Assembly: GCA_963665115.1 (NCBI GenBank)
Contig: OY762007.1
Coordinates: 3,680,001 to 3,744,000, forward strand
Length of the DNA stretch: 64,000 nt
DNA from: an uncultured Rivularia sp.
GTDB lineage: Bacteria > Cyanobacteriota > Cyanobacteriia > Cyanobacteriales > Nostocaceae
Direction: 5' to 3'
Under the pieces are notes generated by a model. That model saw only the letters and a list, made by a program, of their open reading frames with translations. It ran no database searches and was not told where the DNA came from. This document shows positions 47,819-61,291 of the stretch, piece by piece (position 1 is the stretch's first letter; every line of letters begins with the position of its first letter). The translations under genes were made by a program, and so were the position numbers.

Positions 47819-48160
47819 AATATTGGTTTTAGTGATTCTGGAACTGCATATGTAGCATTATTGTCTAACGTTAAGTACCATAACCTGCAAATCTTTAATA
47901 TAAGATTAAGCGTTGAGAATTGATATTTATTGGTGAGTTTAAATTTACTCAGAAGATAGCACGATAATTGGTAATTTGTAATACGTTGCTTGATCTCATC
48001 GCGAGTTGCTCCCATTCAAAATATAGGGGATGAAGATATATGGCGATAAGGTGAAATCCTGCTTACAGGTTCATCCCGTTGTTTTTAAACGTCAGAGATG
48101 TCAAAATGTTCAATCCTGTTTATATTGCTTGCAAAGGTTACACAATTTAAAAGGAAAATT

Positions 48161-49726
48161 ATGGGAAATTTCTCACGTCGGCTATTCGCACTTTTTTTGG
48201 CATTAGTTTTTTGGTGGGAGTTTCTGCCCCTATTTGCATTTGCTCAAACTCCCTCTAAAACCCCAAGCGCCGAGTCAAATGAATTTTCAATTCAACCTTA
48301 CTTAAATCGGGTTGTTGAAAATTTGACGGAGTTCAAATTAGACAATGGTATGAAGTTCATTGTTTTACGACGAACTCAAGCACCCGTAGTTTCTTTTGTT
48401 ACTTATGCTGATGTTGGCGGCGTGGATGAACCAGAGGGAAAGACTGGTGTTGCACACTTTCTAGAACATTTGGCTTTTAAAGGTACGGATAGAATTGGGA
48501 CTACGAATTACGCAAGAGAAAAAAGGTTGCTGGATAGATTAGATCGAGTAGCAGCCCAAATTCAACAAGCGCAAGCAGCTGGACAAAAAGATAAAGTTGC
48601 TCAATTACAAGCTAGGTTTAAGAAGATAGAAACCCAAGCTCGTGAAACCGTAAACCAAAATGAGTTAGGCAGAATTGTCGAACAAGCGGGGGGTGTGGGT
48701 TTAAATGCCACAACTTCCACAGAAGCTACCAAATATTTTTACAGTTTTCCTGCCAATAAATTAGAACTTTGGATGTCTTTGGAATCGGAGCGTTTTCTTA
48801 ATCCCGTGTTGCGACGCGAGTTTTTTAAGGAAAAAGACGTAATTCTTGAAGAAAGACGGATGCGGGTAGATAATTCCCCCATCGGACAAATGATTGAAAA
48901 GTTCAACGATACTGCTTTTGAAAAACATCCTTACAAACGTCCGGTGATAGGTTATGACAAAGATATTCGCAATTTAACCACGCAAGACGTACAGCAATTT
49001 TTCGAGACATATTATGTACCGAGCAATCTTACAGTTGCTGTTGTTGGAGATGTCAAGCCTGCTGAAGTCAAGAAAATGGCAGAAGCTTATTTTGGTCGTT
49101 ATGAAGCCAAACCCAAACCAGAGCAAAAACTTCCGGTAGAGCCAAAACAAACTAAAGAAAAAGAATTTACCTTAAATCTACCTTCTCAACCTTGGTATTT
49201 AGAAGGTTATCATCGTCCAAGTATCAATGACGCAGATAATGCAGTTTACGACATCATCGGTAGTTTGCTCAGCGACGGACGTACTTCGCGGCTATATAAA
49301 TCTTTAGTAGAAGAGAAGCAATTAGCACTCGCAGCCCAAGGTTTTAGCGGCTTTCCCGGAGATAAATATCCGAACCTAATGCTATTCTACGCTTTGACTG
49401 CACCTGGACGTAGCGTTGATGAAGTAGCAGCAGCCTTAACAGAGCAAATTGAACTTTTAAAAACACAGCCAGTTTCTGCTCAAGAATTAGAAAGAGTAAA
49501 AACCAACGCTCGCGCCGGATTATTGCGCTCCCTCGATTCCAATATGGGTATGGCGCAGCAGTTATTAGAATATGAAGTCAAAACTGGTTCTTGGAAGAAC
49601 TTGTTTGCACAGTTAGAAAAAATTGAAGCAGTTACCGCCCAAGATATTATGCGCGTAGCCAAAGAAACTTTCGTTGCAGAAAATCGCACCGTCGGTAAAT
49701 TGTTGCCGAAGAAGCCAGGTAGTTAA
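48161..49726 (+). CDS. M16 family zinc peptidase (active subunit), secreted
   Basis: Signal peptide; HFLEH inverted zincin; NATTS and EERRMR motifs; start uncertain (48098 or 48161). Confidence 0.93.
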   Translation: MGNFSRRLFALFLALVFWWEFLPLFAFAQTPSKTPSAESNEFSIQPYLNRVVENLTEFKLDNGMKFIVLRRTQAPVVSFVTYADVGGVDEPEGKTGVAHFLEHLAFKGTDRIGTTNYAREKRLLDRLDRVAAQIQQAQAAGQKDKVAQLQARFKKIETQARETVNQNELGRIVEQAGGVGLNATTSTEATKYFYSFPANKLELWMSLESERFLNPVLRREFFKEKDVILEERRMRVDNSPIGQMIEKFNDTAFEKHPYKRPVIGYDKDIRNLTTQDVQQFFETYYVPSNLTVAVVGDVKPAEVKKMAEAYFGRYEAKPKPEQKLPVEPKQTKEKEFTLNLPSQPWYLEGYHRPSINDADNAVYDIIGSLLSDGRTSRLYKSLVEEKQLALAAQGFSGFPGDKYPNLMLFYALTAPGRSVDEVAAALTEQIELLKTQPVSAQELERVKTNARAGLLRSLDSNMGMAQQLLEYEVKTGSWKNLFAQLEKIEAVTAQDIMRVAKETFVAENRTVGKLLPKKPGS

Positions 49727-50003
49727 GAGACAAGGTGACAAGAAGACAAGGGAAGAAGGAGACAAGGAGACAAGGAGACAAGGGGACAAGGAGACAAGGG
49801 GACAAGGAGACAAGGGGACAAGGAGACAAGGAGAAGGGGACAAGGGGAGAGAAAAATGTTTGGTAGCTAGGGAGCAAGATGCTCCCACTACTATTTTTTT
49901 TATAACTCCCTACTCCCTACTTACTACTCTTAACTCCTTACTCTTTACTCTTAACTCCTAACTCCCAATTCCCAATTCCCAATCCCCAATTCCCAATTCC
50001 CAA
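49726..50003. repeat. STRR tracts (GACAAGGA/GACAAGGGG; ACTCCTA/ACTCTTA; CCCAATT) around a dispersed palindrome
   Basis: Directly visible; the reverse complement of the same tract is at about 56455-56545. Confidence 0.85.
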
Positions 50004-50015
50004 CAAGGAGAGAGA

Positions 50016-51536
50016 ATGAAGATTAAAAGAATAAGGTACAACAAGAAAGTGAAAAGATTGCTTTACTCGTTACTGGTTTGTTTGGCTTTTGTGCTGGTAA
50101 GTTTTAACTTTTCTGGTGCAATGGCACAGCAAGTAACGCCTAAATATACACCAAAGCATTATACTGATTTGGAATTCAAGCCGGTAGGCGAAATCAAGTT
50201 ACCCGAATACGAACGGTACCAACTTGAGAACGGCATGATAGTTTATTTGATGGAGAATCACGAGTTACCGTTGGTTAATGGTAGTGCATTTATTCGTACT
50301 GGCTCTCGCTTTGAACCTGCCTCGGAAGTTGGTTTAGCTGAGTTAACAGGTGGAGTCATGCGTACTGGGGGAACTGTGCAACATCCTCCCGATAAACTCA
50401 ATCAAATGTTGGAGCAAAGAGCAGCTTCGGTAGAAACTAATATTGGTGATACTTCAGGTAGTGCTGGTTTTCAATCGCTCAGCGAAGATGTAGATACAGT
50501 TTTTGGGTTATTTGCTGAAGTATTGCAACAACCAGCGTTTTCCGAGAATCAGTTGGAGTTAGCAAAAACCCAGATGAAGGGTGGTATTGCGCGTCGTAAC
50601 GATAGCCCAGATCAAATTGCAGGAAGGGAATTCAAAAAGTTAATTTACGGTGAAAATAGCCCTTATGCCCGCATCCCCGAATATTCATCGCTAAATAATA
50701 TTACTCGCGAGGATTTAGTAAAGTTCTATCAGCAGTATTATTATCCCAATAATATGATTTTGGGAATCGAAGGGGATTTTGATTCTGCCAAAATGAAATC
50801 CTTAATTCAGCAAACACTTGGTAAATGGAAAGCTAATCCCAACTTCAAGAAGCCCGCATTACCAGAAGTTTCTCAAGCTAAAACCGGCGGAGTATTTTTT
50901 GTCAATCAACCGCAGTTAACCCAAAGTAACGTACTTATCGGACATATCGGCGATAAATTTGCTAGCCCCGACTATCCCGAATTGGATGTAATGAATGGGG
51001 TGATGAATGGCTTCGGTGGCAGATTATTTAATGAAGTGCGATCGCGCCAAGGTTTAGCATATTCGGTATACGGTTATTGGAGTCCCCGCTTTGATTATCC
51101 TGGTATGTTTATTGCAGGCGGGCAAACACGTAGTGATGCTACAGTACAGTTTGTCAAAGCTGTAGAGGAAGAAATCAAGCGGATTCAAACTCAACCTGTA
51201 ACTCCTCAAGAATTAGCGTTTGCTAAAGAGTCTACTTTGAATTCTTTCGTATTCAACTTCCAAGATCCCGCTCAAACTTTATCACGATTGATACGCTACG
51301 AATATTACGGTTATCCTAAAGATTTCTTGTTTACCTATCAAAAGCAGGTAGAAAACACTACGGTAGCAGATGTACAGCGAGTTGCTAAAGAACATCTAAA
51401 ACTGGATAAATTAGTATTTTTGGTAGTAGGAAATCAAACCGCGATTAATCCACCACTTACACAACTGGCATCGCAGGTAACGCCAATAGATGTAACCATT
51501 CCCGGTACGCCAAAACCGCAAGCGAGTCAACAATAG
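50016..51536 (+). CDS. M16 family peptidase, non-catalytic partner subunit
   Basis: LENGM and GRLFNEVRSRQGLAYSV (R/Y pair) motifs; no HxxEH. Confidence 0.9.
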   Translation: MKIKRIRYNKKVKRLLYSLLVCLAFVLVSFNFSGAMAQQVTPKYTPKHYTDLEFKPVGEIKLPEYERYQLENGMIVYLMENHELPLVNGSAFIRTGSRFEPASEVGLAELTGGVMRTGGTVQHPPDKLNQMLEQRAASVETNIGDTSGSAGFQSLSEDVDTVFGLFAEVLQQPAFSENQLELAKTQMKGGIARRNDSPDQIAGREFKKLIYGENSPYARIPEYSSLNNITREDLVKFYQQYYYPNNMILGIEGDFDSAKMKSLIQQTLGKWKANPNFKKPALPEVSQAKTGGVFFVNQPQLTQSNVLIGHIGDKFASPDYPELDVMNGVMNGFGGRLFNEVRSRQGLAYSVYGYWSPRFDYPGMFIAGGQTRSDATVQFVKAVEEEIKRIQTQPVTPQELAFAKESTLNSFVFNFQDPAQTLSRLIRYEYYGYPKDFLFTYQKQVENTTVADVQRVAKEHLKLDKLVFLVVGNQTAINPPLTQLASQVTPIDVTIPGTPKPQASQQ

Positions 51537-52040: not shown

Positions 52041-52838
52041 ATGAACAAAAACCTCAAATTAATTCAAAACTTTTTTTTAGTTGCTGCTCCAATTTTAGCT
52101 AGCTCTGTTTTAGGTGTTTCACCTAGTAAAGCTGCTACTTTTGCTTATTCTGAAGGAAATTTCTTCTTTTCAGAATTTAGTCAAAATCCATCAAACGTTG
52201 CAACTATTACAGATACATTAGCCATAGGCGAAGAGCTTATGGTTGACGCTATAGCTTTAGCAGAAGCTGAGTTTATTGTTACACCACCCCAAGCATCAAA
52301 TTCATCTTTGAGTGTAGCTTTTGGTGAAAGCCAAGATTATTTAGTAGTTGCAGAAAGTGAAGCTTCGGTTATCGGTAATTTCGATATAGATGCAAATACA
52401 AATTTTTCTTTCAATTTTTCAGGCGATTTAGAGCTTGCCACATCAATAGACAATCCTCCAAAAGAGAATGCAAGAGCTAGTGGAGATATATCTTTTGCAC
52501 TTATCGATATCCAAAACAGTAATGTCTTAGAATTCTTCAATCTTGTAGGAAACATTGCAACGGAAGGAGATAACGATTTTGTGACGTTACAAAAAAGCGA
52601 TAATATTACTTTAAGTGAAAAATTAATTGCACCTGGTTTTGGCGGTTTGCAAGAATTTCTAGCGGTATCTGTTGAAGGTTCTTTTGAAAGCCATTTTGCG
52701 AAGGAAACAACTTTAGCGTTAGTAGAAGTTAAGCGAAATCGAGCCGAAGTTAAAGCCGTACCCGAAGCTTCAAGTAGTCTGGCTTTGCTCGTATCTAGCG
52801 GCCTTATTGGTGTAGTATTAAAACGCAGACGTAAGTAA
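52041..52838 (+). CDS. PEP-CTERM-type (exosortase-sorted) surface protein
   Basis: Signal peptide ending PSKAAT; C-terminal VPEASSSLALLVSSGLIGVVLKRRRK. Confidence 0.88.
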   Translation: MNKNLKLIQNFFLVAAPILASSVLGVSPSKAATFAYSEGNFFFSEFSQNPSNVATITDTLAIGEELMVDAIALAEAEFIVTPPQASNSSLSVAFGESQDYLVVAESEASVIGNFDIDANTNFSFNFSGDLELATSIDNPPKENARASGDISFALIDIQNSNVLEFFNLVGNIATEGDNDFVTLQKSDNITLSEKLIAPGFGGLQEFLAVSVEGSFESHFAKETTLALVEVKRNRAEVKAVPEASSSLALLVSSGLIGVVLKRRRK

Positions 52839-53390: not shown

Positions 53391-53690
53391 ATGAGAATTA
53401 TTGATTTAAAATCTTCAGAACTAGTAGAAGTTCAAGAGAACATTATGGGCGGCGTATATAGTTATGCTTATGCTCAAACATATGCTTCATCAAACGTGGG
53501 TTTGGCACAAGCTAATGCAGCTGCTGTTGGAGAGGAAGCTTACACCTCTACAAATACTTCTACTGCTATTTATAACAGTTCTAATTCTACAATTACAGAT
53601 TCTTATGCAAGCGCAAATGCTTATGCGAAGAAAAATAAAAGCTACTCAAGTTCTTCTCACAACAGTATTTCCTTCTCTATATTTACTTAA
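53391..53690 (+). CDS. Small secreted protein with double-glycine leader (MRIIDLKSSELVEVQENIMGG|), Ser/Ala/Tyr/Asn-rich core
   Basis: Leader resembles those at 54463 and 54947; a C39-ABC exporter is nearby. Confidence 0.8.
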   Translation: MRIIDLKSSELVEVQENIMGGVYSYAYAQTYASSNVGLAQANAAAVGEEAYTSTNTSTAIYNSSNSTITDSYASANAYAKKNKSYSSSSHNSISFSIFT

Positions 53691-53928
53691 TAGTTTATAT
53701 ATTCCAATTTTTTCAAAGTTCCCCTCCACTTAGAGTCCAGTATTCTCAATATTTTTCTATTGTATGAACGCTGGTTTTTAACTATTTATAACGCCCCTTT
53801 TTGGAAGAGAAGGGGTTATCTAATTAATACAGCGATAGAACCTACAGAAAATCCTCCCCGAAGTTTGGGGAGGGTGCGGGTAGTAGATATGGGTTTATAA
53901 CGGTAGCTTACCCGCATTTTAATATGAA

Positions 53929-54081
53929 TAGGACTTACGCAAAAGCAACGTAACTGCGTCATTACGAGCGACAGCGACGTATATGTCCTATCGGACACGC
54001 TCCGCTAACGCAAAAACCCTGCGATTGCTTCCCTACACTGCGTACCGATCGCAATGACAAATCTCCATAGCGTAAGTCCTG
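53929..54081. mobile_element. MITE-like element AGGACTTACGC...GCGTAAGTCCT
   Basis: 11-bp perfect inverted termini. The cargo shares GTCATT.CGAG with 13871-14002 and ATGTCCT.TCGGACACGCT.CGCTAACGC with 11449-11477. Confidence 0.7.
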
Positions 54082-54156
54082 ATGAAGTATTTTGAGTTTT
54101 ATTATGCTCAAAACACCCAGTTTATCAGGACGGCTTATTATCTACATTGGCATCTT

Positions 54157-54351
54157 CTATTTACTAGAACAACTAGAACTCGATGTTGAAGAACTATTGT
54201 CATTATTACTTGTAGAAACATTAACAGAAACAGTTTGACTAGTTTTAGCTTCCTTATCGTCACTAGAGACTTTAGCTATACTTATTGCCTCTGCAAAACT
54301 GTTTCCTTTACGCGATATCATACGTTTCATTCTTGCTTGATACCGAACCAT
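54157..54351 (-). CDS. 64-aa Ser-rich small protein without GG leader
   Basis: AAAAGGGT RBS-like motif as on the upstream gene. NSFAEAISIA...SSSTSSSS resembles the core of 54947-55207. Confidence 0.6.
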   Translation of the reverse strand: MVRYQARMKRMISRKGNSFAEAISIAKVSSDDKEAKTSQTVSVNVSTSNNDNSSSTSSSSCSSK

Positions 54352-54462
54352 ATTTTTAACCCTTTTTTCGCAAATTATTAAAAAAAGCTATTAAGAAACT
54401 ATCTGCTTCTACTTAATAGCTATTTTTTGATAAACCCAAGCTAAAAAAACTGAATTGAACAG

Positions 54463-54783
54463 CTATAAAATTTGAGCGCTGTATGCAAAAGACCTCGCAA
54501 CTTTACTATCGCTATATTCACTACTTTGTAAAGTAGCAGCTACAGTCAAGCTATTCTCCGTTTTATTAGACATCATGATTCCAGTAGCACCTGTTTCTTT
54601 GTCTTCGATGAATTGTGTCTTATATCCACTATTTATATCTAACAATGTCTCATCCTGTATCCCTAAATAATAAGAAGGACGTAATATTAGACGGGAATAT
54701 ATCAACATTCCACCTTGCACGCTTCGTTCATCCTGAAGCTCTGTATCACAAAAACTAAGATCCGAAATTTTTAATCTTTTCAT
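54463..54783 (-). CDS. Small protein with double-glycine leader (MKRLKISDLSFCDTELQDERSVQGG|)
   Basis: I-x-D-L...V-x-GG leader; ATG at 54783 with AAAAGGGTG upstream. Confidence 0.75.
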   Translation of the reverse strand: MKRLKISDLSFCDTELQDERSVQGGMLIYSRLILRPSYYLGIQDETLLDINSGYKTQFIEDKETGATGIMMSNKTENSLTVAATLQSSEYSDSKVARSFAYSAQIL

Positions 54784-54946
54784 AAACACCCTTTTGGCAA
54801 AAGTTATATCGCCAAAAGCTTCTAGAATAAAGCTTTCAGCGATATGAACGATATTCTTTTTTTTTTAATCAATCTACTTCACATACAGACTAAAAAGAAT
54901 AAGAGTTAAACGAGTTTGTAGAAGCCTCGTTTAACCCAAACAGGTA

Positions 54947-55207
54947 CTAGTCTACAGCTGCGAATGAACCAGAACTAGAACCGGAAGAGTGATTGTCAGC
55001 ATATGTGTCAGTGAAAGTCTTTGTGAAAGACTTCCTGCCGAATGCTCTAGAATCTGCAAAAGCTTCAGCAGAATTATCTTCTAAGTCTATTTTGGTTTTT
55101 ACATTGAGCTTCACGAAATCGTTTTGATAGTAAGAGTAGAAGCCAAAACCACCAACAACTTCAGTTCCTTCAACAGCTTCCAAGTGATTTAAATCTAAAA
55201 TATTCAT
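54947..55207 (-). CDS. Small protein with double-glycine leader (MNILDLNHLEAVEGTEVVGG|), alternating Ala/Thr/Ser core
   Basis: Strong AGGAG RBS, its own promoter candidate, first gene after the exporter operon. Confidence 0.85.
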   Translation of the reverse strand: MNILDLNHLEAVEGTEVVGGFGFYSYYQNDFVKLNVKTKIDLEDNSAEAFADSRAFGRKSFTKTFTDTYADNHSSGSSSGSFAAVD

Positions 55208-55569: not shown

Positions 55570-56355
55570 TTAAGCCTGTTTGATAATCTCTTTGTTCAAT
55601 GAAATATTAACAAGATTATCTTCTAGTTGAGCATTAATTTGCAGATGTTGAATTTGTTGCTTCAACCAACCATTAAATAAATCTGAAATAATTTGCTCCC
55701 GTAGCTGTTCATCTAATTTGGGTTGAATAATTTCTTCAACCCAAATTAAATAAACACCTTTAGGACTTACAATTGGCTTAATAATTTCCGGTGGAGTAGC
55801 AGCAAATACACTACTCGCAATTTCCGGACGAAAATCTTTGCGCCGTTGAATTCCCTGATATCCACCAGCACGACGCAATTCTGGAATTGGAATATATTCG
55901 CGAGCAATTTCCGGGAAAGTCAATTCATTTTCTTGCAGCGCGTAAAACAGTTCCAAAGCCAAGTCATAATTATCAAAAATGACTTCATAGGTAACAGCTT
56001 TTACGAAATCAAGTTGATTTTGATAAAAGAATGCTTCGACTTTATCGGTAAATAAGTGATGTGCTACTTTCTTGGCAAGCACGTTGTTATAAACTAATTC
56101 TTCAAACTCATCGATAGAAAGATGATGAGCTTTCAACCATGCCCAAGTATCAGCTGCTTTGACAAGTTTTTTCGCGAATCTCAGCCTATCTCCTTCTTGC
56201 TGTAATTCTTCATCATCAACTGTAATACCTGCTGTACTAGCAACATCAGCAATAATTTTTCGAGTCGCTATCCCCTCTACTATGTGAGGAATCTGGCAAG
56301 ACATCTTCAAATGATGGATTACGTCTTTAGATGATATGGATAAAGTATTTTTCAT
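55570..56355 (-). CDS. PpiC/parvulin-like peptidylprolyl isomerase or chaperone associated with type I secretion
   Basis: FPEIAREY...RAGGYQG...PEIASSVF...PIVSPKGVYLI rotamase-like fold; follows hlyD. Confidence 0.85.
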   Translation of the reverse strand: MKNTLSISSKDVIHHLKMSCQIPHIVEGIATRKIIADVASTAGITVDDEELQQEGDRLRFAKKLVKAADTWAWLKAHHLSIDEFEELVYNNVLAKKVAHHLFTDKVEAFFYQNQLDFVKAVTYEVIFDNYDLALELFYALQENELTFPEIAREYIPIPELRRAGGYQGIQRRKDFRPEIASSVFAATPPEIIKPIVSPKGVYLIWVEEIIQPKLDEQLREQIISDLFNGWLKQQIQHLQINAQLEDNLVNISLNKEIIKQA

Positions 56356-56550
56356 AATTGGTAATTGTTAATTGGTAATTGGTAATTGGGAATAGTTAAG
56401 AGTTGTAAAACAATGAGTAGTGGGAGCATCTTGCTCCCTGCCTACCCCCTCTCCTTATCTCCTTGTCTCCTTGTCTCCTTGTCTTCTTGTCTTCTTGTCT
56501 TCTTGTCTTCTTGTCTCCTTGTCTCCTTGTCTCCTTATCTCCCTGCTCTC

Positions 56551-58104
56551 TCAAACCTCCAATCCTCCTTTTTGCAATTTCTTAAATGGATCTAACAGAA
56601 AATCAATTAAGCGCCGCTGACGAACAATCACCTCAGCATTTGCAGTTTGCCCAGGGGTTAGGGGAATGCGTCGCGATCCATTTTCGATATACGGCTTATC
56701 AAGTGTGATTCTTAATTCATAAATTTCTGCACTACCTGGGGTTGTTGCTTCAACTTTTGAATCTGGGGAAATCCAACTGACTTTACCCGGTAAAACTCCA
56801 TACTCTTGGAAAGGGTAGGCATCAAACTTCACTTTTACCGGCATTCCCGTTTTCAATAAGCCGGTTTCCTTAACTGGCATTTGAGCTTTCAAAACAAAAC
56901 CGCTATCTTTGGGGGCAATTCTGGCAATTCTTTGTCCGGGTTGTAACACTTCTCCCGGCTTGGATACGGGTAACTCAAAAACTATGCCATCAATTGGCGA
57001 TCGCACTATTCGCTGTTGTATCTGAATGTTTAAAGAAGTTATCTCGCTTTTGGTTTGAGCAATTTCCGATTTCGTAGAATTTATTTGCCTTTGCAAATCT
57101 TTTAGTTGCTCTTGAGTCTTTAACAGAGTGAGCTTTCCGGCATTGACTGCACTTTGATAACTGCTCTGTTGCTCAGATAAACGCAGTTTTGCTTGTTCAA
57201 TATCAGACTGCAACTGATTCATTGTTGTCTGATAGCGATTTGTTTCTTCAGCTAAACGGAATTGAGCTTGCTTAATGTCCGATTCAGTTTTCTCGTAAGC
57301 TCGCTTGCTTTCTTGTCGTTGTTTTCTTAGCCGATCGATTTGGGCAGCGGAAACAGCACCATCTTGCAAAAGTTTGCTGTAGCGCTCTACTTGTTTTCGA
57401 TCTATCCCTAAACTCACTGCTGCCGATTTACGTTCGTCTTCTAAAGTTTGAATCTGCTGTTTAGCTTGATTTACTAATGCTTGTTTCTCTAAATTTTGTA
57501 GTTTATAGGTACTCTGCTTGGCATTTAAATCTTGAATAGCTTGATTAACCTGAGCTTTTTTCTCCAAAGCTTGAGACTGGTTTTGTTGCTCTTGGGTGCT
57601 AGCTGTCAACTCTATTTGCTTCTTGAGCAGTTCTAATTGCGATACCTGATTTTGAAACCCCGCCAACTTTTCCTTTGTCCGTTCCAACTCTGACTTAACT
57701 GTATCGTTATCTAGTTGTAAAAGAATTTGTCCGGCTCTAACTTTATCTCCTTCTTTTACCTTCACAGCAGTAACACTACCGCCAGCGATACTGTCTAATT
57801 TGCGAATCGATCCTAATGGTTCTATCCTTCCTCTAGCGCTACCAGTTTCATCAACAGTAGAAACCATCGACCAAGGCAATCCAACAGCAAGAAAGCCAAC
57901 AAAAACATAGATTAAAGAACGGCTCCAGACTTTTGGTAAAGCATCTAGAAGTTCCTCGGTACCATAGTGTAAATTTTCGGATGTTTCTACAACCTCTGGC
58001 GATGATTGCTCCTTTGTATCTTCCTCATAGGGAGGCGATGGAGTGTAAGCAAGATATTCATCCTTCCTCGCCAGAGATGATGAATTGTGGTGTGCGTGCG
58101 GCAT
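56551..58104 (-). CDS. HlyD family membrane fusion protein
   Basis: Single TM, VKEGDKVRAGQ, long coiled coil, RSPIDG and KFDAYPFQEYG motifs. Confidence 0.95.
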   Translation of the reverse strand: MPHAHHNSSSLARKDEYLAYTPSPPYEEDTKEQSSPEVVETSENLHYGTEELLDALPKVWSRSLIYVFVGFLAVGLPWSMVSTVDETGSARGRIEPLGSIRKLDSIAGGSVTAVKVKEGDKVRAGQILLQLDNDTVKSELERTKEKLAGFQNQVSQLELLKKQIELTASTQEQQNQSQALEKKAQVNQAIQDLNAKQSTYKLQNLEKQALVNQAKQQIQTLEDERKSAAVSLGIDRKQVERYSKLLQDGAVSAAQIDRLRKQRQESKRAYEKTESDIKQAQFRLAEETNRYQTTMNQLQSDIEQAKLRLSEQQSSYQSAVNAGKLTLLKTQEQLKDLQRQINSTKSEIAQTKSEITSLNIQIQQRIVRSPIDGIVFELPVSKPGEVLQPGQRIARIAPKDSGFVLKAQMPVKETGLLKTGMPVKVKFDAYPFQEYGVLPGKVSWISPDSKVEATTPGSAEIYELRITLDKPYIENGSRRIPLTPGQTANAEVIVRQRRLIDFLLDPFKKLQKGGLEV

Positions 58105-58213
58105 AATCAGTTACCAATTATCAGTTATCAATTATCAGTTAAGAGTTAGAAACCATTTGTAGTGGGAGCATCTTGCTCCCTAGCTGCTTTTTAATGCCCA
58201 ATGCCCAATCCAT

Positions 58214-61200
58214 CTACCCCACATTTGCTAATTGCTGCTGGTTAAGATAGTAGTAATGACCTTTTTTGGCAATCAATTCGTCGTGTGTACCACTTTCTAT
58301 CAATATGCCTTTATCCAAAACTAGGATTAAATCGGCATTGCGTACTGTAGAAAGACGGTGAGCAATGATTAAGCTAGTACGTCCTTTAAGAATTGTTTTT
58401 AAATTGTTTTGAATTATACGTTCGGTTTCGGCATCTAAACTACTGGTTGCTTCGTCGAAAATTAATAATTGAGGATTACCTAACAAAGCACGAGCGATTA
58501 CGAGACGTTGCCGTTGTCCTCCAGATAACATTCCCCCACCTTCACCGATTTCATTTTCGTAACCCATCGGTAATTGCTGGATAAATTCATCTGCTCCGGC
58601 CAAACGCGCTGCTTCGACAATTTCTTCTAAAGCAGCTTCCGGGTGAGCAACACTAATGTTTTCTCGGATGGTTCCGCCAAATAAGAAGGTATTTTGGTCT
58701 ACTACACCTACTTGACGACGCAGGGATTTTAAGGCAATTTTCGATACATCATGACCGTCAATTAAAACCTTGCCTTCTGTTGGAGGATATAAGCCTAAAA
58801 TTAGCTTTGACAGTGTAGTTTTCCCAGAACCGCTACGTCCTACTACTGCGATGGTTTGCTCTGGTAGAATTTCAAAGCTGAGATTCTCTAAAACGTTAAC
58901 TTCGCTTTCCGGATGATAGCGGAAGCTAACGTTATCAAAGCGAATATTACCGCGAAGTTTAGATATATGTTTGCGGGGGGATGCAAGCAAATTTTCTTCT
59001 GCTTCAGCTTCTAAGACATCATTAATCCGTTCGGTAGAAATCATAATTTCTTGGAATTGATTCCATACTCCCGAAAGTCGCTTAAAAGGACTGAGAACGT
59101 TGCCCATCAACATATTGAAGGCAATTAATTGTCCGATGGTAAGTTGATTTTGAATCACTAAATAAGCGCCAAACCACAACAGAACCGTACTGCTTATGGT
59201 ATCGATACTGCCGCTAATAATTTGTAATCTTGTACCAATTATCTTGGCTCGAAAGCTTTTTTTGATGACATTATTTAATAATTCTTCCCACTTCCAGCGC
59301 ACTGTATCTTCGATCGCCATACTCCGCACGGAACGAATACCCGTCAGAGATTGAATTAAATAGCTGTTTTGTTCGGCACTAGCATTAAAAATCTCTCTTG
59401 ACATTTTTCGGAGAATGCTGGTACTCGCCAGCGCCAAAATAAAAAATGGCGGCACTATCAAAAGTACTAACAATGTTAGCTGCACGTTGTACCAAAACAT
59501 CACAGCTAAATAAACAACTATCGTAATTAAATCGAGAACTATTGATAGTGTTTCGCCAGTCAAAAAACTCTGAATCTTGCTATTTTCTTGAATTCGGGAA
59601 GTTATATCGCCGACGTAACGTGACTCGAAGTAAGACAAAGGCAAGCTAAAAGTATGTTTGAGAAACCCTACCAGCATAGCGACGCTAATCCGGTTGGCGG
59701 TGTGATACAGCAAATACGAACGCACCGCATTAACCGCGATGCTGAAGAAACCAAAGATTAATAACCCCAAACCAACCGCGTTTAGAGTAGATATACTACC
59801 TTGAACAATTACTTTGTCTAATAAAAATTGCGTAAATAGCGGCGTAATCAACCCAAATACTTGCAGCAATATCGAAGCCATGAATACTTCAAACAGTACC
59901 GCATAATGAGGTTTGATTAATTCATAAAACCTCCAAACGCCACCTATCTCTTCTTGGGCTTCTTTGAGTCTAAGTGTCGGTTGCAACAACAATGCATAAC
60001 CAGTCCACTTGTCTTTAAACTCTGCATGAGGAATACTGCGTTGCCCAATGGCTGGATCGCAAACTATAACGTGTTTTTTATTGATTTCGTAGACAACAAT
60101 ATAATGCTTGCTTTCCCAGTGAGCAATTGCCGGTAAAGACTGTTGCGCCAATTTATCAAAGCTGGCTTTTACGGGTTTGCTCGCAAAGCCGATACTTTCG
60201 GCAGCAGCAGCCAAACTCCGCAAGGATGCACCACTGCGGTTGACATTGGCAATATCTCGCACGCGATTAACAGCCAACCGTCTACCCCAATGTCTGGCAA
60301 TCATTACCAAACAAGCGCAACCACAGTCGGAAGCACTTTGTTGGGCAAAGAAAGTATATTGCTTGCTAAAGCGTTCCCATATATGTTTAGCCTTGGTTTT
60401 AGGGCTGGGGAAGTAGGGTTTAGCTTTTTTCTGGGCTGAGGAAGAAGGGAATGGGATAACTTTCCGATTGCTAGCAATTTGCTCAGTTTGAGGAAATGTC
60501 TTATTATTCTGGTTCCTAGAACGAAATTCACGGGGTGAAAATTGCTCTGATGGATTGATCCAGGCTCGCAACTCGTTCCATTCTTCCAGAGCTAATTGCA
60601 AGTTAGAATTTTTAAGACTATAAACAATAGTTGGTTGCGTTACTTCCCATTTTCCATCGGTATCTTTATCTGTATAAATATTTCCTGGAGTTAAAATTCT
60701 ATTTGCGGCGTTTTTTATCTCTCCTCGTCGTAACAGCAATAATTTATTATCCTCAAATAGTTGAAGAGTACTTCCCCCAACTTCAATACGATACCGCTCA
60801 CATAAATAGAGAGCCTTGAATATTTCCTCCGTGGAGGAACTAAGCGGTAGTTGTGAATTCTGACGGCACAGTAGCAATATGTCCCAAAATTCTGCACGTC
60901 TGTAGAAACGCTCTCGAATTTGAGGATGCTTTTCCATTAAGCCATATAACGCTTCACCGCTGATAAAGCAAAGTTTCAAAGAAGTTGAAGCCCTTGCAGT
61001 CAAGTTAATAAAATTTTGTTCGCCAAACAAACTCTGTTCGCCAAAGGATGCACCACAAGAAACGGTTGCGATTAAATTATCCGAATCATCAAGAAGTCGA
61101 ACTTTACCCGCAAGCACTATAAAAATACCGGGTTTTGCTTCGGGCGATCGCCAAAATAACTTTGCTACTTTCGGTTCGATGATTTCTATTTTCTTCAAGC

Positions 61201-61291
61201 AGCTTTGTATATCTTGCTCTGTCAGGCTTTCACCCAAAGTTGCGATAATTGTATGACATAGCTGCTCTTGAGATAATACATCTTGCATCAT
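58214..61291 (-). CDS. Peptidase-containing ABC transporter (cNMP-binding-like + C39 peptidase + ABC; HlyB/HetC-like)
   Basis: GIFIVLAGKVRL..FGE (cNMP-like); QQSASDCG, HWESKHYIVV and CDPA (C39 Cys-His-Asp); GRSGSGKT, LSGGQ and FDEAT. Confidence 0.96.
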   Translation of the reverse strand: MMQDVLSQEQLCHTIIATLGESLTEQDIQSCLKKIEIIEPKVAKLFWRSPEAKPGIFIVLAGKVRLLDDSDNLIATVSCGASFGEQSLFGEQNFINLTARASTSLKLCFISGEALYGLMEKHPQIRERFYRRAEFWDILLLCRQNSQLPLSSSTEEIFKALYLCERYRIEVGGSTLQLFEDNKLLLLRRGEIKNAANRILTPGNIYTDKDTDGKWEVTQPTIVYSLKNSNLQLALEEWNELRAWINPSEQFSPREFRSRNQNNKTFPQTEQIASNRKVIPFPSSSAQKKAKPYFPSPKTKAKHIWERFSKQYTFFAQQSASDCGCACLVMIARHWGRRLAVNRVRDIANVNRSGASLRSLAAAAESIGFASKPVKASFDKLAQQSLPAIAHWESKHYIVVYEINKKHVIVCDPAIGQRSIPHAEFKDKWTGYALLLQPTLRLKEAQEEIGGVWRFYELIKPHYAVLFEVFMASILLQVFGLITPLFTQFLLDKVIVQGSISTLNAVGLGLLIFGFFSIAVNAVRSYLLYHTANRISVAMLVGFLKHTFSLPLSYFESRYVGDITSRIQENSKIQSFLTGETLSIVLDLITIVVYLAVMFWYNVQLTLLVLLIVPPFFILALASTSILRKMSREIFNASAEQNSYLIQSLTGIRSVRSMAIEDTVRWKWEELLNNVIKKSFRAKIIGTRLQIISGSIDTISSTVLLWFGAYLVIQNQLTIGQLIAFNMLMGNVLSPFKRLSGVWNQFQEIMISTERINDVLEAEAEENLLASPRKHISKLRGNIRFDNVSFRYHPESEVNVLENLSFEILPEQTIAVVGRSGSGKTTLSKLILGLYPPTEGKVLIDGHDVSKIALKSLRRQVGVVDQNTFLFGGTIRENISVAHPEAALEEIVEAARLAGADEFIQQLPMGYENEIGEGGGMLSGGQRQRLVIARALLGNPQLLIFDEATSSLDAETERIIQNNLKTILKGRTSLIIAHRLSTVRNADLILVLDKGILIESGTHDELIAKKGHYYYLNQQQLANVG

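Follow-up and report, generated by a model that had tools for sequence, protein, structure and literature searches.

Small proteins of a cyanobacterial group II 'bacteriocin' cluster as predicted subunits of a secreted beta-sheet fibre

The window analysed here, 64,000 nucleotides of contig OY762007.1 (positions 3,680,001 to 3,744,000) from the 8.69 Mb genome of an uncultured Rivularia sp., contains three small open reading frames (ORFs), 53391-53690, 54157-54351 and 54947-55207, between a PEP-CTERM-like gene and genes for a PpiC-like protein, a HlyD adaptor and a C39-ABC transporter with a domain for binding cyclic nucleotide monophosphate (cNMP). We propose that 54947-55207 (type A) and 53391-53690 (type B) probably encode subunits of a secreted beta-sheet fibre; that they form an exported, self-assembling beta polymer of some kind is, if anything, slightly more probable. 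The genes lie in a conserved cluster, and we observed in their products strands with a single small-residue face and, in type A, ladders of coupled residues. A sequence-only reading of this DNA had ascribed stackable beta-hairpins, as in functional amyloids or beta-sheet fibres, to all three proteins; its fibre idea is largely supported, as a prediction, while the third protein (type C, 54157-54351) drops out.

Results

Types A and B have one conserved small-residue face

The residue segments on which the sequence-only reading rested are present in all three ORFs, which are covered by contigs of three public runs with zero differences. When the period-2 contrast in G/A/S/T content was scored against 5000 shuffles per ORF, it was significant in 53391 (P=0.0012) and 54947 (P=0.0046; P=0.11 with G/A/S alone), and not in 54157 (P=0.08) or the further small ORF 54463 (P=0.37). 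The literal motif A-x-A-x-A-x-x-x-A-x-G, thought to be common to the three, occurs in 54947 only and is absent from 53391, which carries [AS]x[AS]x[AS]x[AS]xG plus TxTxTxT, and from 54157, which has SxSxS as its only quoted motif. The small-residue face itself holds for 54947 and 53391, and for 54157 merely in a weak version; given also its Val/Ile face and the HHalign probability of 0.4% for homology with type A, this third protein lacks the shared fold signature. For types A and B the signature is real, conserved and family-wide, and both the period-2 statistics and the family columns support stackable beta-strands with one small-residue face.

The type-A family was collected from matches of at most 165 amino acids (aa) and at least 35 bits in which the core was covered, giving 412 distinct sequences with an effective number (Neff) of 294; the database matches taken in were 120 of 292 and 150 of 345, and alignment A6 comprises 150 sequences. 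Of 301 genomes sampled across the phylum, 32 matched a type-A profile; a deeper profile matched 121 of 401 genomes of the order (about 30%), although some weak matches may rest on the leader alone. A GG leader is present in 395 of the 412 sequences; in an alignment of 134, G19 is invariant and position 20 is G or A. In those 134 sequences, columns 47, 49, 51, 53, 55 and 57, columns 60, 62, 64, 66, 68 and 70, and columns 75, 77, 79, 81 and 83 are 67-100% G/A/S/T, and the interleaved columns are mostly variable. Across the 412, the core consists of three strands of about 11 residues (b1, b2 and b3) with turn residues at 44, 57 and 72; the small face is 93% G/A/S/T and 0% D/E/K/R, and the outer face is 21% charged and 39% hydrophobic.

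Pfam and NCBIfam gave no family for the small proteins of the window or for the sets of 39 members and 150 type-A members scanned; the small window proteins had no NCBIfam match, and none of the 150 members had a match named CTB. In the ESM Atlas, PF28158 (CTB) appeared as a weak look-alike only (0.88 and 0.77), and the scanned Pfam set may omit this family; the Atlas otherwise returned only cyanobacterial clusters without names. Sequence searches of the PDB with profiles of type A, type B and the domain of the PEP-CTERM-like neighbour gave nothing significant. A four-copy complex prediction for type-A residues 21-86 scored 0.16 (mark 0.42), with controls not folded, and speaks neither for nor against assembly.

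Type-A couplings point to contacts between copies

The top six couplings in the 412 type-A sequences, by both mean-field and pseudo-likelihood direct coupling analysis, are 60-75, 62-77, 64-79, 66-81, 68-83 and 70-85. All are i/i+15 pairs between b2 and b3, at which the states switch between T-S and A-A. In a kinship test on 206 disjoint sister pairs, for which the small-face columns were left out of the tree, the direction of joint changes agreed in 23/24, 19/20, 15/15, 12/12, 15/18 and 6/6 cases for the six pairs in that order, and i+15 pairs supplied five of the six lowest P values obtained for 115 column pairs. A stricter tree test confined to supported branches recovered the same diagonal, but with only 4-8 independent pairs per column pair.

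None of the six pairs is a contact in any of three monomer models (0/6 in each), and simple geometry suggests that two straight 11-residue strands joined by a four-residue link could not lie as parallel neighbours within one chain. Since the top couplings match no tested monomer topology and survive the tree test, the i+15 pairs likely mark contacts between copies. The self-assembly of type A foreseen in the earlier reading is thereby indirectly supported, as a prediction. In total, the couplings form six ladders, namely i+15 twice, i+30, and the sums 115, 130 and 145.

The ladders favour an arch followed by a hairpin

All six ladders fit a two-sheet ribbon with a 2-fold screw, and the four topologies that we compared are distinguished solely by the choice of ladders placed inside a sheet. 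As a criterion, within-sheet neighbours were expected to couple on both faces. On the outer face, signals were found for b1-b2 in parallel register (z 3.1 versus 0.1), b2-b3 as a hairpin (3.4 versus 0.7) and b3-b1 in antiparallel register (3.5 versus 0.2), which together point to an arch followed by a hairpin. Of the 20 strongest inter-strand pairs, 19 are contacts in the arch-hairpin lattice, as are 25 of the 30 strongest; the lattice's area under the curve is 0.88, against 0.80-0.82 for the three alternatives, and it won 60 of 60 cluster bootstraps and, with the turn pair left out, 30 of 30 split halves. One lattice variant, H', was dropped because of a slot clash, its valid form being H''.

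The N-terminal arm, whose couplings played no part in choosing this lattice, couples to the rows (46,61,84), (48,63,82) and (50,65,80), with a best-row score of 72.5 versus 53-61. The arm also couples to itself at i+4 (mean z 2.9, versus 0.4 inside the strands, and 2.3 in 272 gap-free arms), in agreement with a same-side repeat of about 14 A. In place of the pure stack of hairpins suggested at first, an arch plus a hairpin is likelier for type A, while the AlphaFold2 (AF2) model of type B favours hairpins. As a model of the couplings, we regard the chance that the exact arch-plus-hairpin two-sheet lattice is right as about evenly balanced.

Type-A variants carry insertions, fusions and other leaders

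Several relatives depart from the plain type-A plan. Leaderless proteins of about 300 aa start at the predicted mature N-terminus, the residue after GG, and hold an insert of about 200 aa between b2 and b3 (Table 1); the three scanned (L167-L169) match no Pfam family. Other relatives have a domain fused at either end, one of them with SdrD-B. In four of the 412 sequences (P0173, P0210, P0253 and P0261), the type-A core is preceded by a Sec-like signal with a GG-type pro-leader after it, an arrangement resembling the periplasmic, Fap-like C39 route. A plasmid search with one Sec-signal relative and one paralogue gave no match for either. In four further loci (L162-L165), type-A and B-like cores stand behind a different leader and adjoin a short peptidase-containing ABC transporter (PCAT), beside which lies a regulator that we take to be AraC-like. 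Such cores appear to have moved between exporter classes.

Types B, C and D

Types A and B share homology, with an HHalign probability of 97% (E 3e-11) for a match that includes the leader, and at family level type B has five strands with a small-residue face. In the AF2 model of type B, the core has a predicted local distance difference test score (pLDDT) of 93-98, the leader is disordered and there is no helix; the strands are 23-33, 36-46, 49-62, 67-81 and 84-98, separated by gaps of 2-4 residues. Foldseek found no match to this model at E<=0.001, and in a second fold search, with VIA, the best Z was 4.7, none reaching 5 among 48,161 chains. The best, weak matches are flat antiparallel sheets and include sheets of pore-forming proteins (Z 4.7 and 4.2), with no beta-solenoid among the matches listed; the type-B fold searches show neither a new fold nor a fold family. 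The type-B profile matched 14 of 41 relatives. Of seven to nine close type-B homologues (P0267-P0275), five, at about 105 aa, are annotated 'TonB-dependent receptor' in public databases, a name that is a propagated misannotation.

Type C has 43 distinct homologues, none with a GG leader (0/43), and a Val/Ile face. BLAST probes for type D (54463-54783) and for a Ser-rich N-terminus of RTX proteins matched 0 of 58 loci, so the conservation of both was left uncounted. Types C and D may be immunity-like genes.

The gene cluster and its neighbours

Table 1 Features of the cluster in the window and of related split-core proteins
Feature	Position	Strand	Remarks
Surface protein with signal peptide, PEP-CTERM-like	52041..52838	+	PEP-CTERM matches weak, below cut-off; candidate anchor
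Type B protein, 99 aa	53391..53690	+	GG leader, then five strands with a small-residue face; predicted to be a cap or minor subunit
Type C protein, 64 aa	54157..54351	-	Leaderless; conserved RIVSPDGKxxAEAKS family; poly-Ser tail
Type D protein	54463..54783	-	GG-type leader; poorly conserved core, no period-2 signal
Type A subunit, 86 aa	54947..55207	-	GG-type leader, then an N-terminal arm and three strands with a small-residue face; predicted to be the main subunit of the fibre
Type A strand b3, residues 74-85, Ser face	54953..54988	-	From family columns and couplings
Type A strand b2, residues 59-71, Thr face	54995..55033	-	From family columns and couplings
Type A strand b1, residues 45-56, Ala face	55040..55075	-	Followed by invariant Gly57
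Type A N-terminal arm, residues 24-43	55079..55138	-	Face of alternating V/I; coupled with the strands' outer face and, at i+4, with itself
Type A leader, residues 1-20, ending GG	55148..55207	-	Family consensus MIISDLNYLE-x8-GG; predicted C39 cleavage site
PpiC/SurA-like rotamase-domain protein	55570..56355	-	PF00639 above cut-off; TIGR04500 and PF13145 matches; predicted export chaperone
HlyD type I secretion adaptor	56551..58104	-	TIGR01843 above cut-off
Long PCAT: cNMP-binding, C39 peptidase and ABC exporter	58214..61291	-	Cys323 and His396 present
Leaderless split-core proteins	L167:4112-5050, L168:4519-5415, L169:4222-5181, L170, L171

All four domains of the long PCAT (PF00027, PF03412, PF00664 and PF00005) match above cut-off. 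To see what accompanies type A elsewhere, 58 loci were fetched and the 36 of at least 14 kb were counted; kin among them are not independent, so the counts are descriptive. Beside type A, these 36 loci hold PpiC (34), HlyD (32), C39 (30), types B and C (21 each), HetP-like genes (20), RTX proteins (18) and the PEP/RTX-linked domain (12). Type A is present in 2-5 copies in 18 of them and type B is usually single, a gene dosage that agrees with the split into major and minor subunits suggested earlier.

The PEP/RTX-linked domain, of about 210 aa and no known family, is found in the window in 52041-52838 with a signal peptide and a PEP-CTERM-like tail, and in L001:10621-11847 it stands N-terminal to RTX repeats; as judged from these architectures, two export routes serve one domain. 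It has short Ala-alternating strands; homology to the A/B cores was considered and rejected (HHalign 3.9% and 0.5%).

About 20 kb past the end of the window, a sister cluster contains four tandem, near-identical type-A paralogues (L002:1240-2761; contig 3763240-3764761), two PpiC genes, HlyD, two PCATs, a HetP-like gene, RTX proteins and TPR-glycosyltransferases (GT41), the last suggesting that the Ser/Thr-rich products may be glycosylated. One of its PCATs (L002:6424-9512) reads as three ORFs; run contigs X1 and X3 have one base fewer at each of the two breaks, which are therefore probably assembly errors. L002:14837-15307, which we take to be HetP-like in the absence of a Pfam match and which belongs to the sister cluster, not the window cluster, has an internal copy of the leader motif (IKDLAYLE...GG) and could be an exporter decoy, a regulator or a substrate.

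Two genes at 48098-51536, presumably M16-like peptidases, directly flank the cluster here and in close relatives; M16 peptidases have been linked to group II clusters (PMC3140520). In seven loci (L016, L020, L021, L023, L025, L029 and L032), large neighbours, several cut at the locus edge, have a Ser/Ala/Thr-alternating start followed by Pro-Thr/Pro-Ala linkers and are possible fibre-tethered adhesins. The export genes are separated by short heptamer/nonamer repeats in tandem (49600-49960, 56360-56550 and 58110-58200), which are typical of filamentous cyanobacteria and cause high depth and false joints in the run-contig comparison.

Discussion

We propose a model in which the PCAT would cut off residues 1-20 of type A and then export the core through HlyD, while the PpiC-like protein probably keeps the core unfolded for export. 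Outside the cell, a two-sheet cross-beta polymer would form, with Ala/Thr/Ser faces zipped together. In the preferred lattice, b1 would arch over a b2-b3 hairpin, and successive subunits would be related, in idealised geometry, by a 180-degree turn and a shift of about 7 A, such that Thr of b2 meets Ser of b3 in the neighbouring subunit. The N-terminal arms would follow the fibre axis and lie over hydrophobic outer rows, with a stagger of about 4 residues. Most of the fibre would consist of type A, with type B capping it or serving as a minor component; cargo would be displayed by the long variants, which have inserts in the b2-b3 loop or fusions at the ends, and the PEP-CTERM/RTX neighbours might tether the fibre. 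By analogy with EbfG, a role in the sheath or biofilm matrix is likely.

A fibre of the same biology could be packed differently, as flat antiparallel meanders or as a curli-like two-sheet solenoid of 1.5 coils, placed face to face into ribbons or sheets. We consider such packing unlikely, and its probability is part of that given to the fibre, not additional to it. The same six classes of ladder are expected from the meander and solenoid lattices, whose contacts include 18 and 17 of the top 20 pairs, and G57-N/K is a textbook type II' hairpin sequence. On the other side, outer-face couplings in the b1-b2 hairpin register of a meander are nil (mean z 0.1-0.5, against 3.1 in parallel register), arm residues 36-42 touch 46, 61 and 84, which form one row only in the arch-hairpin lattice, and neither meander nor solenoid won any of the 60 bootstraps or 30 halves.

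Several points weigh against the arch-hairpin fibre. The lattice was proposed post hoc, after the pseudo-likelihood couplings had been seen, and since bootstraps and split halves reuse the same sequences, they speak for stability but do not amount to independent proof. The signals on the outer face are of modest size (mean z about 3), quasi-repeats in the arm may account for part of its i+4 signal, and of the six i+15 pairs only 68-83 reached P<0.05 among the results listed for the supported-branches test. The AF2 model of type B, judged from its strand limits and fold matches, apparently reads as a flat five-stranded meander with a 2-residue gap at the equivalent of b1-b2; together with the flat antiparallel fold matches, these strand gaps imply a hairpin at the homologous link, in conflict with an arch. 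Type-B couplings (Neff 32) are too shallow to fix any lattice. Because the AF2 monomer of type A is of low confidence (pLDDT 45), it gives no structural check. For the family members, the fibre, secretion and expression are predicted only.

Type A could instead form closed dimers or small oligomers, alone or with types B and C, that are secreted and work in soluble form as scaffolds or signals, for instance during differentiation in the manner of HetC and HetP. The HetP-like genes in many of the long loci and the HetC-type exporter in the cluster would suit such a role, as would the fact that the substrate of HetC is described as unknown in the text of PMC10986499, and subunit number cannot be read from couplings alone. 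We nevertheless hold this to be improbable: three inter-chain ladders (b2-b3 i+15, b1-b2 i+15 and b1-b3 sum 130) need neighbours at +1 and -1, the i+4 ladder of the arm implies translation along an axis, and tandem, near-identical copies suggest bulk demand.

Decidedly improbable, in our view, is that these proteins are bacteriocins or microcins as annotated, which would kill competitors, for instance through membrane beta-barrel oligomers, with amyloid as a storage or secondary state. A GG leader with a PCAT is the classical route of bacteriocin export (PMC3140520), Acinetobacter microcins are both antibacterial and amyloid (PMC13188072), and the best type-B fold matches include pore-forming sheets; Z below 5 is, however, background for such sheets. 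The cores are hydrophilic, with 7 of 412 type-A and 0 of 59 type-B sequences reaching 1.6 in 19-residue hydropathy, and mostly acidic or neutral, and the charged fraction of the outer face argues against a membrane barrel. Furthermore, the core shows conservation, not diversification, over many genera, and the 200-aa inserts and adhesin-domain fusions are tolerated in it.

It is very improbable that the i+15 signal is intramolecular, from a single-chain beta-helix of 15 residues per turn, or an artefact of correlated drift among internal repeats: the three strands are indeed spaced 15 residues apart and repeat proteins can yield spurious couplings at i+period, yet the coupled states are T-S and not identical residues, the b1-b2 ladder is weaker than b2-b3 by a factor of four even though each joins neighbouring repeats, and a beta-helix conflicts with the lack of mid-strand turn residues (no Pro, Gly at most 22%, whereas 44, 57 and 72 are clear turn sites) and of cross-core couplings (11 of 12 pairs within the 15-mers with z below 2).

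Judged from its genes, the layout of the window cluster matches the group II cyanobacterial 'bacteriocin' clusters of Wang, Fewer and Sivonen (2011; PMC3140520), a grouping repeated in PMC4558948: both have a long PCAT with a cNMP (CAP_ED) domain, HlyD and a SurA/rotamase protein, while the HetP-like gene of the group II layout has its probable counterpart here in the sister cluster; the HetP motif given there, KIxDLxYLEx10GG, matches the type-A leader. In the passages that treat them, that paper lists the precursors without function or structure and calls the cores unconserved; here, by contrast, they fall into conserved families that show a one-face pattern and couplings that are likely inter-chain. 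The letters of the leader had no match in the searched supplements, where 58 precursors of group II are classed as 'other'. A literature search of full texts, whose coverage excludes most subscription journals, returned no paper describing the A/B cores or the lattice.

The closest functional precedents are EbfG and the microcin amyloids, whose motifs are absent in types A and B. EbfG1-4 of the EbfG/PteB system of Synechococcus elongatus have GG leaders, are exported by a C39 transporter and are needed for biofilm (PMC4997328, PMC9981879), and EbfG1-3 form amyloid (PMC9981879). They resemble the proteins here as several GG-leader proteins of about 9-10 kDa beside a C39 exporter and HlyD, and they are secreted, as is predicted for types A and B. 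On the other hand, the S. elongatus cluster has been likened to Anabaena alr5139-5148 (PMC12267927), the group III example of Wang and colleagues, with a short exporter, and the Anabaena candidates printed there look by eye like other families. Mature EbfG is reported without homologues in other cyanobacteria (PMC4997328 / PMC9981879). In a comparison by motif, the EbfG hotspot A[FIQ]NI[GS] occurred in 0 of 412 type-A, 0 of 59 type-B and 0 of 43 type-C sequences.

Curli (CsgA/B) and Fap (FapB/C, FapD) share with the fibre predicted here small secreted subunits, a predicted cross-beta build, and major and minor components. The curli repeat motif QxGxxNxA, and NQQxN, were found in none of the type-A, B and C sequences, and 39 members gave no curlin Pfam match. 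The core here is of Ala/Thr/Ser, not Asn/Gln ladders, each subunit has three strands and an arm, and the predicted export is of type I rather than through CsgG or FapF, although Fap secretion also needs a C39 peptidase (PMC5557850). The CT pilus of Microcystis (MrpC; PMC12397347) is a cyanobacterial extracellular filament of double-layer antiparallel beta-sheets; its Ser/Thr residues are glycosylated and an O-GlcNAc transferase lies nearby, as the GT41-TPR gene does in the sister cluster. The CT pilin differs in having a signal peptide and a helix-turn-helix, and in its two long hairpins, which run almost along the axis (PMC12397347). No PDB sequence match linked the CT pilin to the type-A or B profiles, and the type-B model has no helix.

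Class II microcins that form amyloid include MccE492. Another, MccAB1 (PMC13188072), is small, secreted and of microcin class, and its fibres promote biofilm; it differs in that it kills by inner-membrane permeabilisation and in having immunity proteins, and the cores here have no membrane-spanning stretch. By hydropathy and charge counts, types A and B do not have a hydrophobic or cationic membrane-active core. The Rhagium antifreeze protein and the cross-beta silk of lacewing egg stalks show very tight sheet packing of Ala/Ser/Gly, as predicted here, though they are eukaryotic and without a leader/PCAT system, and the Thr rows of the antifreeze protein face outward, whereas here Thr couples with a buried Ser row. 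What would be new, if the model holds, is an undescribed fibre architecture that is specific and testable; secreted beta-fibres as a kind are already known.

Little is known of the proteins that make up the sheaths, mats and soil crusts of cyanobacteria, and since 2011 the group II clusters have appeared in the literature as cryptic bacteriocins to which no product is assigned. We tentatively suggest, as a possibility that falls somewhat short of an even balance, that these clusters are a dedicated assembly pathway for an undescribed fibre, an arch-hairpin Ala/Thr/Ser ribbon with arms, caps, cargo variants and anchors; on this view, relatives exported by the Sec route probably occur outside cyanobacteria too. 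Our analysis names concrete candidates of 6-8 kDa with residue-level contacts (Thr62-Ser77 and Thr68-Ser83). A fibre with a loop that naturally accepts 200-residue inserts would be a useful display material. If the fibre is real, HetC-type exporters would gain their first structural substrates, and a widespread cluster filed as 'bacteriocin' would make matrix fibres instead.

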